This document shows positions 3,373 through 3,500 of a stretch of 5,322 bases of DNA, piece after piece. The number at the start of each line of letters is the position of its first letter. Position 1 is the first letter of the stretch. Source of the DNA: a virus (taxonomy: Duplodnaviria > Heunggongvirae > Uroviricota > Caudoviricetes); the IMG/VR virus record IMGVR_UViG_2703718820_000005, positions 1 to 5,322 of that record; one strand, 5' to 3'. The notes under the pieces were generated by a model. It searched no databases. It saw only the letters and a program-made list of their open reading frames with translations, and had not been told where the DNA came from. A program made the translations under genes and the position numbers.

Positions 3373-3466
3373 GCAGAATATTTTGCTGAAAAATAAGGCA
3401 TGGCCACGCGGGCGGATAACATGAAATCCTGCGAACTGGCGAAACGTAAGTGAATAAAAGTAAAAA

Positions 3467-3500
3467 CCCCGTTTGTTGGCAGCAAGCGGGGTTTTGTTTT
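3467..3500 (+). terminator. Intrinsic (rho-independent) terminator inside the lysis cassette, downstream of R
   Basis: CCCCGTTTG (3467-3475) pairs with CAAGCGGGG (3483-3491): a 9-bp stem with one G-U pair around a 7-nt loop, followed by TTTTGTTTT and preceded by AAAAA. Confidence 0.6.

Follow-up and report, generated by a model that had tools for sequence, protein, structure and literature searches.

The endolysin gene R in the 5,322-nucleotide stretch of phage DNA analyzed here (IMG/VR record IMGVR_UViG_2703718820_000005, referred to as the window) is followed directly by a 128-nt non-coding module, and the right half of this module is a hairpin that, judged by its sequence, appears to be a genuine terminator, conserved and very common, whose putative role makes sense. 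We consider it somewhat probable (about 55%) that this is an operon-internal terminator which would be transparent to Q-modified RNA polymerase and would stop unmodified polymerase, thereby keeping the inserted cargo genes, Rz and terminase dependent on Q. The reading is based on the structure of the hairpin, its strand bias and conservation, its linkage to R, the architecture of the insertion whose edge it forms and the absence of a consensus promoter.

The window covers the late region of a Stx-like lambdoid prophage of the Shiga-toxin type found in E. coli, and the features used in our analysis are collected in Table 1. The 186-aa ORF that separates holin and endolysin matches phrog_1085, a family of unknown function, and has no match in Pfam; its shorter counterpart in the O103:H2 strain 12009 is labelled in RefSeq as a partial YdfR-family protein, and its position holds other small genes in Sp9 and Qin. 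Strain 12009 also contains an identical copy of the target, beneath which RefSeq annotates nothing. A second strain with a 100% identical copy is O55:H7 CB9615. Further downstream, a 12-nt unit (AAATCGATCATG) is repeated 4.4 times at 4913-4965, in an ORF that begins at 4777 upstream of the terminase genes, and the repeat encodes a recurring I/T-D-H-E/K motif.

Table 1. Positions of the genes, ORFs and RNA elements discussed in the text (window coordinates)
Feature	Position	Strand	Remarks
SASA/NanS-p-type esterase gene	end at 1329		
Two small conserved ORFs	between esterase gene and holin		
Phage-21-type class II holin	2026-2241		PF04971, P21 holin S family; upstream of R
186-aa ORF	2242-2802		between holin and endolysin; start overlaps holin stop
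Endolysin R	2839-3372	+	177 aa, hydrophobic N-terminus, phage-21 type; Pfam PF00959 Phage_lysozyme, E 1.4e-24
Leader start, AU-rich, GCAGAATATTTTGCTGAAAAAT	3373-3394	+	common to every downstream cargo class
Hypervariable block	3395-3413 (leader 23-41)	+	19 nt, discrete alleles, near-invariant flanks
Conserved core, GGATAACATGAAATCCT	3414-3430 (leader 42-58)	+	GGATAAC..AAATCCT
A-rich tract	3453-3467	+	five consecutive A-R-N triplets AAU AAA AGU AAA AAC, directly before hairpin
Intrinsic terminator	3463-3501	+	stem 3467-3475 (5' arm CCCCGTTTG) and 3483-3491 (3' arm CAAGCGGGG), loop 3476-3482 (TTGGCAG), U-tract 3492-3501 (TTTTGTTTTT)
Hydrophobic ORF 1	3533-3662	+	43 aa, TTG start, GGGAGG 5 nt upstream; phrog_6632, E 1.4e-13
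Hydrophobic ORF 2	3665-3796	+	43 aa; phrog_4906, E 4.5e-21
Hydrophobic ORF 3	3793-3915	+	about 40 aa, GTG start overlaps preceding stop; phrog_1115, E 6.4e-25
Hydrophobic ORF 4	3927-4013	+	28 aa, ends IRWW; phrog_4493, E 3.8e-06
Rz spanin	4015-4482	+	PF03245 Phage_lysis, E 4.5e-51; phrog_13
Rz1	4235-4420	+	embedded in Rz
Small terminase subunit	start of gene, after Rz		last in window

The first-pass annotation of this DNA had described a canonical terminator with a 9-bp stem, a 7-nt loop, a U-tract and an upstream A-tract, and all of these elements are present where it had placed them. The hairpin starts 95 nt past the R stop. Six of the nine pairs of the stem are G-C and one is G.U, an A-tract (3462-3466) lies directly upstream, the tail carries U at nine of its ten positions, and pairing of AAAA with TTTT lengthens the stem to 3463-3495, where 11-15 bp with a 3-nt loop is an alternative form. 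The folding energy is -15.6 kcal/mol for the core and -20.0 kcal/mol for the extended stem. A generic terminator scan does not discriminate by count, since it finds 10 sites in the window when 6.5 are expected; the site at 3463-3501 is rank 1 among these terminator-like sites and is the sole strong + strand terminator within the 5.3 kb, and a hairpin of equal terminator quality was obtained, on either strand, in only 1 of 300 dinucleotide-preserving shuffles of the window. The same annotation had seen no convincing ORF ahead of the hairpin, and this was borne out for 3373-3466, where the 17-codon frame at 3400-3453 is missing from other alleles. The program-listed ORF at 3450-3662 runs through the hairpin, and a stop codon closes it in sister alleles.

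The terminator is kept in all 26 of the aligned alleles, with changes that are single-sided or wobble only, and the tail retains the pattern TTTTGT(G/T)TTT. Over 13 variants the mean stability is -18.6 kcal/mol as + strand RNA versus -13.3 kcal/mol as - strand RNA; the + strand hairpin is the more stable because the changes are G.U-compatible on that strand only. The changes thus preserve the + strand RNA hairpin, which favours a function in the sense transcript. With its stem and loop, its U-tract, its conservation and a quality beyond chance, the segment 3463-3501 has what is expected, at the sequence level, of a Rho-independent terminator.

The hairpin had been placed between R and Rz. It does lie there, at the 3' end of the R trailer, but it does not adjoin Rz, as the four small hydrophobic ORFs (3533-4013) intervene. 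In K-12 Qin, as in most other genera, R overlaps Rz directly, and at 60 of 79 species-representative R-homologue loci in the Enterobacterales the R stop lies within or right next to the following large ORF. Because the R-Rz junction is this tight in relatives, we regard 3373-4014 (~640 bp) as an insertion into the ancestral overlap. The 128-nt module forms the left edge of the insertion and the four ORFs fill the rest of it. The module is carried by one of the 79 species-representative loci, that of an Escherichia sp., and the remaining 78 have no BLAST similarity to it. Starts and stops of the four ORFs overlap or abut, and their PHROGs (6632, 4906 and 1115/3246/4493) are of unknown function. 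The N-terminus of ORF 1, xDFSKLIRE, is kept in sister alleles with a GTG start preceded by AAAGGAG; the annotation of O103:H2 strain 12009 lists ORF 2 as a hypothetical protein, and the RefSeq start of ORF 3 is at the position equivalent to 3760. ORF 4, a paralogue of ORF 3 (BLASTP E 2e-04), stops 1 nt before the Rz start. Both the number and the order of the small hydrophobic ORFs differ between alleles.

Other prophages carry other cargo behind the same leader: four or more unrelated modules follow it, and the breakpoints lie near nt 59, 86 and 95. In TL-2011c the cargo after the leader is a single small ORF, and in Sakai Sp5, Sp9, VT2-Sakai and 933W-like prophages it is the antirepressor gene ant, with homology ending at about nt 86-95. 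In Sakai, copies of the ant type follow ECs_1213 and ECs_1784. The ant class has a different and weaker hairpin (GGCACCGTAATGGTGCC), followed by T-rich TTTGTCATTT, upstream of ant, and the A-rich segment is still conserved there despite the change of hairpin. A third hairpin class exists among the cargo types, and the hairpins of the second and third classes (T2 and T3) have weaker T-rich tails. In the cargo classes that have only the first ~59 nt of the leader in common and then continue into unrelated genes, no terminator-like hairpin was found. We had considered that every cargo class might have its own terminator after R; these 59-nt classes rule this out, and a terminator after R is therefore not a universal requirement.

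The module is widespread in E. coli and closely tied to R. Of 5426 complete E. coli genomes, 1980 carry it at 80-100% identity; the median number of places per genome is one and the highest is seven. It was also found in 317 phage records, which are mostly Stx1- or Stx2-converting phages; the Sakai prophage Sp4 contains a full copy (NC_002695.2 1,184,821-1,184,948, - strand). Two pattern scans of IMG/VR yielded about 190 loci, and none of the loci scanned had the module apart from R. All of the 123 hairpin occurrences sampled have the same leader upstream, beginning directly at the R stop, and R is intact upstream of the module in at least 135 of the 157 loci with room to check. Many of the 22 calls of a non-intact R are one-base register artefacts (R of Sakai Sp4, for example, is annotated as intact), and R is clearly disrupted in three loci (L104, L214 and L222). 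Homologues of R with 72-89% protein identity were also found on contigs labelled Bacillota, Veillonella parvula, Vagococcus, Geobacteraceae and Xanthomonas (loci L134, L136, L150, L175 and L205), which are most likely mis-binned or contaminating enterobacterial prophage sequences.

The part of the module ahead of the hairpin is a mosaic of constrained and variable segments, which we compared by nucleotide diversity (pi) over 67 distinct R-plus-leader haplotypes. Within R, pi is 0.18 at third-codon positions and 0.024 at first and second codon positions; within the leader it is 0.027 for the core (3414-3430), 0.30 for the hypervariable block (3395-3413) and 0.15 for leader positions 59-75 (3431-3447). 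A constrained core beside a block that exceeds the synonymous-like diversity is not what is expected of a neutral spacer, and a plain terminator would not account for these two values either. In the AU-rich leader start few changes occur, even in loci retrieved by the terminator instead of the leader sequence, and this segment may be an RNase E-type cleavage region. The A-R-N tract is likewise near-invariant among alleles. The hypervariable block holds a weak 5-bp hairpin (3398-3402/3409-3413) that is paired in 80% of cells versus at most 48% in slid controls, with 12 pair types and an alternation of T-A, T-G and C-G that includes T-A to C-G switches. The conserved core forms a 4-bp hairpin, GGAU/AUCC (3414-3417/3426-3429), which is part of the RNAalifold consensus and has one-sided changes only. 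Applied to 26 alleles, RNAalifold did not predict the 5-bp hairpin, found no compensatory pair anywhere and gave no consensus fold for the variable parts; taken together, the comparisons lend weak support to a 5' structure in the leader. The alleles of leader positions 23-41 and 59-75 recombine freely (for example in loci L072 and L097), and as recombinant alleles mix both segments in this way, a long-range pairing between them is ruled out. Most alleles (L010, L012 and L003 among them) contain an 8-codon mini-ORF at leader positions 20-46 (equivalent to 3392-3418) that starts 19 nt past the R stop and has the TAA of the conserved GGATAA as its stop codon. Its peptide is not conserved (MTLANADG and MRFAHTDG are examples), and the window allele lacks the start codon, having ATA where others have ATG.

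To place the hairpin in its transcriptional context, the whole window was scanned for sigma-70-like promoters. None was found on the + strand, and none was seen by eye in the end of R and the leader; the single match in the window is on the - strand (3671-3642), when 4.9 matches are expected from shuffles. In the first ORF after the hairpin, the Shine-Dalgarno sequence begins 21 nt and the TTG start 32 nt past the U-tract, and sister alleles have AAAGGAG or AAGGGAG plus a GTG or ATG start at a similar distance. There is thus no room for a separate promoter after the U-tract, and the downstream genes must therefore be late genes. Q-modified polymerase ignores intrinsic terminators in the late operons of lambdoid phages, and given this biology the terminator would matter only for transcription that is not antiterminated.

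The explanation that we prefer, an operon-internal terminator, would work as follows. The R trailer with its terminator would be the left edge of an insertion that split R from Rz in the Stx-like lambdoid lineage of E. coli. During lytic growth, Q-modified RNA polymerase coming from PR' would pass the hairpin, and by this read-through the small membrane-protein genes, Rz/Rz1 and terminase would be transcribed like any other late gene. Unmodified polymerase in the lysogen may enter the lysis region from promoters past tR' or by leakage through tR', and it would halt at the hairpin, so that the inserted cargo and everything downstream would be strictly Q-dependent; the by-product would be an R-proximal transcript whose 3' end carries a stable hairpin and a U-tail. 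For Sakai lysogens, a promoter active beyond tR' has been documented (PMC7547250). By homology with lambda, 933W and H-19B, we infer that 3463-3501 would terminate transcription in vivo and be read through under Q. Insulation may then be the role for which the terminator was selected. Against this stands the fact that a terminator located after S and R cannot shield the cell from those lysis genes; insulation would be of benefit only if the downstream genes were harmful.

Several known systems resemble the target in part. The tR' and downstream terminators of lambda, 933W and H-19B have the same canonical hairpin and U-tract on the late strand downstream of PR' and Q, whereas the target is not tR' and borders an insertion that separates R from Rz, kilobases further downstream; like the terminators that Q overrides, it should stop unmodified polymerase only (PMC7547250). 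A moron is a promoter-gene-terminator cassette of lambdoid phages (Juhala et al. 2000, as cited in PMC4104026). The target region shares with morons the extra DNA between late genes that are adjacent in relatives and the variable cargo (small membrane proteins, ant and others); it differs in that the terminator precedes the cargo and that no promoter is detectable. With the terminator first and no promoter, it is therefore not a classical moron, and the cargo looks like Q-dependent late genes. Hfq-dependent sRNAs derived from 3'UTRs have been reviewed (PMC9438474), and StxS is a tR'-terminated sRNA of Stx phages that is transcribed from the constitutive PR' promoter (PMC7547250). As in StxS, the 3' end of the putative RNA would be set by a phage terminator that is bypassed in antitermination, and the A-R-N motifs, the U-tail and the AU-rich possible processing region resemble those of 3'UTR-derived sRNAs. 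The difference is that StxS is fed by PR', while no promoter feeding the target is known.

The first-pass annotation had also raised the idea that the target might be one of the known sRNAs of lambdoid late regions, to be recognized in a search of sRNA collections. This idea was not sustained: searches of Rfam with the whole window and with 3300-3560, at E values up to 10, returned nothing credible on the target, and AgvB/AsxR, PasA and HnrS all map elsewhere. These RNAs, together with Esr41 and PasB-D, resemble the target in being multicopy, borne in late regions and ended by a terminator, some with variable and conserved parts; they differ in position and strand and have no sequence or covariance-model match to it. 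AgvB and AsxR are RNAs of 51-60 nt with a conserved 3' part of ~42 nt, encoded antisense in the moron site 3' of PR' (PMC4104026), and their models (RF02702 and RF02703) do not match the target at E values up to 10. PasA is on the - strand between the esterase gene and the holin gene, and in the E2348/69 prophages that carry PasA-D (PP2, PP4 and PP5) a lambda-type R overlaps Rz and the module is absent. HnrS (EcOnc10-12) is on the - strand downstream of Rz. A BLAST comparison of PasA and of the HnrS-containing region of Sp9 with the window gave nothing at 3373-3500. Esr41 and the tR'/StxS RNA were rejected on position and strand, and neither has an Rfam or BLAST link to the target. The best Rfam score on the target (3429-3500) belongs to OhsC (RF02495), an antitoxin sRNA that represses a small hydrophobic toxin ORF; the target shares with it the layout AAAGUAAAA-CCCCGUU...CGGGG-UUUU and the presence of small hydrophobic ORFs nearby. 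Identity with OhsC was rejected at 20.1 bits against a gathering score of 50 (E 0.79) and with the likeness confined to the A-tract and terminator. Moreover, the target precedes the ORFs on their own strand, in neither a divergent nor an antisense arrangement, and the similarity is probably due to chance.

Two other places in the window touch on these RNAs. A candidate sRNA on the - strand at 1335-1407, convergent with the esterase gene, ends in a terminator (CGCCAGC...GCTGGCG followed by T8); it has a weak Rfam match to Esr41 (30.4 bits, E 0.0078, against a gathering score of 102), with which it shares CUCCAUGGGG..CCGCC, and it occupies the position of PasA and EcOnc51/52 in other prophages, with no BLAST similarity to PasA. 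Predicted pairing of the R trailer with this neighbouring Esr41-like RNA was no better than with shuffles. In the spacer between Rz and terminase (4483-4776), identity to the HnrS spacer of Sakai Sp9 is 79% over the first 181 nt; unrelated sequence takes the place of the actual HnrS segment (ACTGCTGTGACTCCAACACGGCAGTTTTTTT, - strand), and the prophage therefore lacks HnrS.

Among the alternatives to a plain terminator, a regulatory RNA deserves the fullest discussion, and we regard it as possible but unlikely. Here the 128-nt module, or a processed part of ~90-120 nt, would be an Hfq-binding RNA from the R 3'UTR, set free when transcription ends at the hairpin and the AU-rich leader start is cleaved, with the hypervariable block or the conserved core acting as seed or sponge. 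The five A-R-N triplets directly before a hairpin with a long U-tail are motifs of the Hfq type, and A-R-N repeats are reported as an Hfq-binding motif for EHEC (PMC4104026). The contrast between the core and the allelic block, measured against the synonymous-like value, points in the same direction and resembles the design of prophage anti-sRNAs, which have a variable 5' end and a conserved 3' end (PMC4104026). The module is multicopy, as HnrS and PasA are, and its small 5' hairpin survives wobble and double changes. The candidate seed in the core is conserved and yet predicted to be partly paired. Against a regulatory RNA are the missing + strand promoter, the constant linkage of the module to R, the RNAalifold result without compensatory pairs, and the nature of R as a late gene, which offers no evident source of a transcript in the lysogen. 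Apart from the lack of an Rfam match, no description of the site turned up when the literature was searched for terminators or sRNAs located between R and Rz. The module is missing from the 63 EcOnc Hfq-CRAC candidates of Sakai, despite the full copy in Sp4, and the EcOnc table has no entry at any R 3' end; this absence is a weak negative because the screen left out peaks on the sense strand up to 100 bp from coding regions. Similarly weak is the negative from a text search for R and ant locus tags in the searchable portions of the Hfq-CRAC and RNase E-CLASH supplementary files, which gave no match. A broader version, to which we assign a still lower likelihood, would make the R trailer a multicopy prophage family of 3'UTR Hfq RNAs with the hypervariable stem-loop as an allelic seed or decoy. 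The conserved scaffold of this family would consist of the core hairpin, the A-R-N tract and the terminator, and different prophages would target or sponge different host or rival-phage RNAs, in lysogens or in the lysis burst.

The remaining explanations seem improbable to us in different degrees. The leader and hairpin could be a functionless recombination joint that travels with R during lambdoid module exchange, as the fusion to unrelated modules at recurrent breakpoints and the free recombination of the leader alleles would allow; we hold this to be improbable, given that a neutral joint should approach a pi of 0.18, not 0.027 beside 0.30, and that the changes in the terminator keep its structure. 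Rather more improbable is a hairpin that acts mainly on the - strand, or in both directions, and stops antisense transcripts before they reach R and S. On that strand the upstream A-tract does provide a T-run (TTTTTACTTTTATT), and the one promoter-like site lies 140 nt downstream; however, almost every variant has a - strand hairpin that is weaker by about 5 kcal/mol, promoter-like matches are below the shuffle level, the downstream genes differ in sister alleles, and the A-rich segment is kept in the ant class, whose hairpin is different. We give the least credence to a regulated attenuator, in which the terminator would form or not depending on an alternative fold or on ribosomes translating a short ORF in the leader, and the downstream lysis accessory genes would be tuned in this way. 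The 8-codon frame, with its start 19 nt past the R stop and its end in GGATAA, would suit such a mechanism, but alleles with ATA in place of ATG are common in addition to that of the window, the peptide varies, base pairing between leader and terminator 5' arm does not exceed the shuffle level (fraction 0.22), and an attenuator would be irrelevant in lytic growth given a Q-modified polymerase.

Whichever of these readings applies, roughly one in three sequenced E. coli genomes contains the module, often in several of its prophages, and most EHEC and STEC lineages are among the carriers. If it is a terminator only, as we prefer to read it, it would show how insertions into the lysis cassette, such as the antirepressor and the small membrane proteins, stay Q-dependent, and strict dependence on Q bears on prophage stability and on cross-induction in strains that are lysogenic for many prophages. 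If instead it gives rise to a stable RNA, it would be one more multicopy phage-borne regulator beside AgvB/AsxR, StxS, HnrS and the Pas RNAs, which tune virulence.
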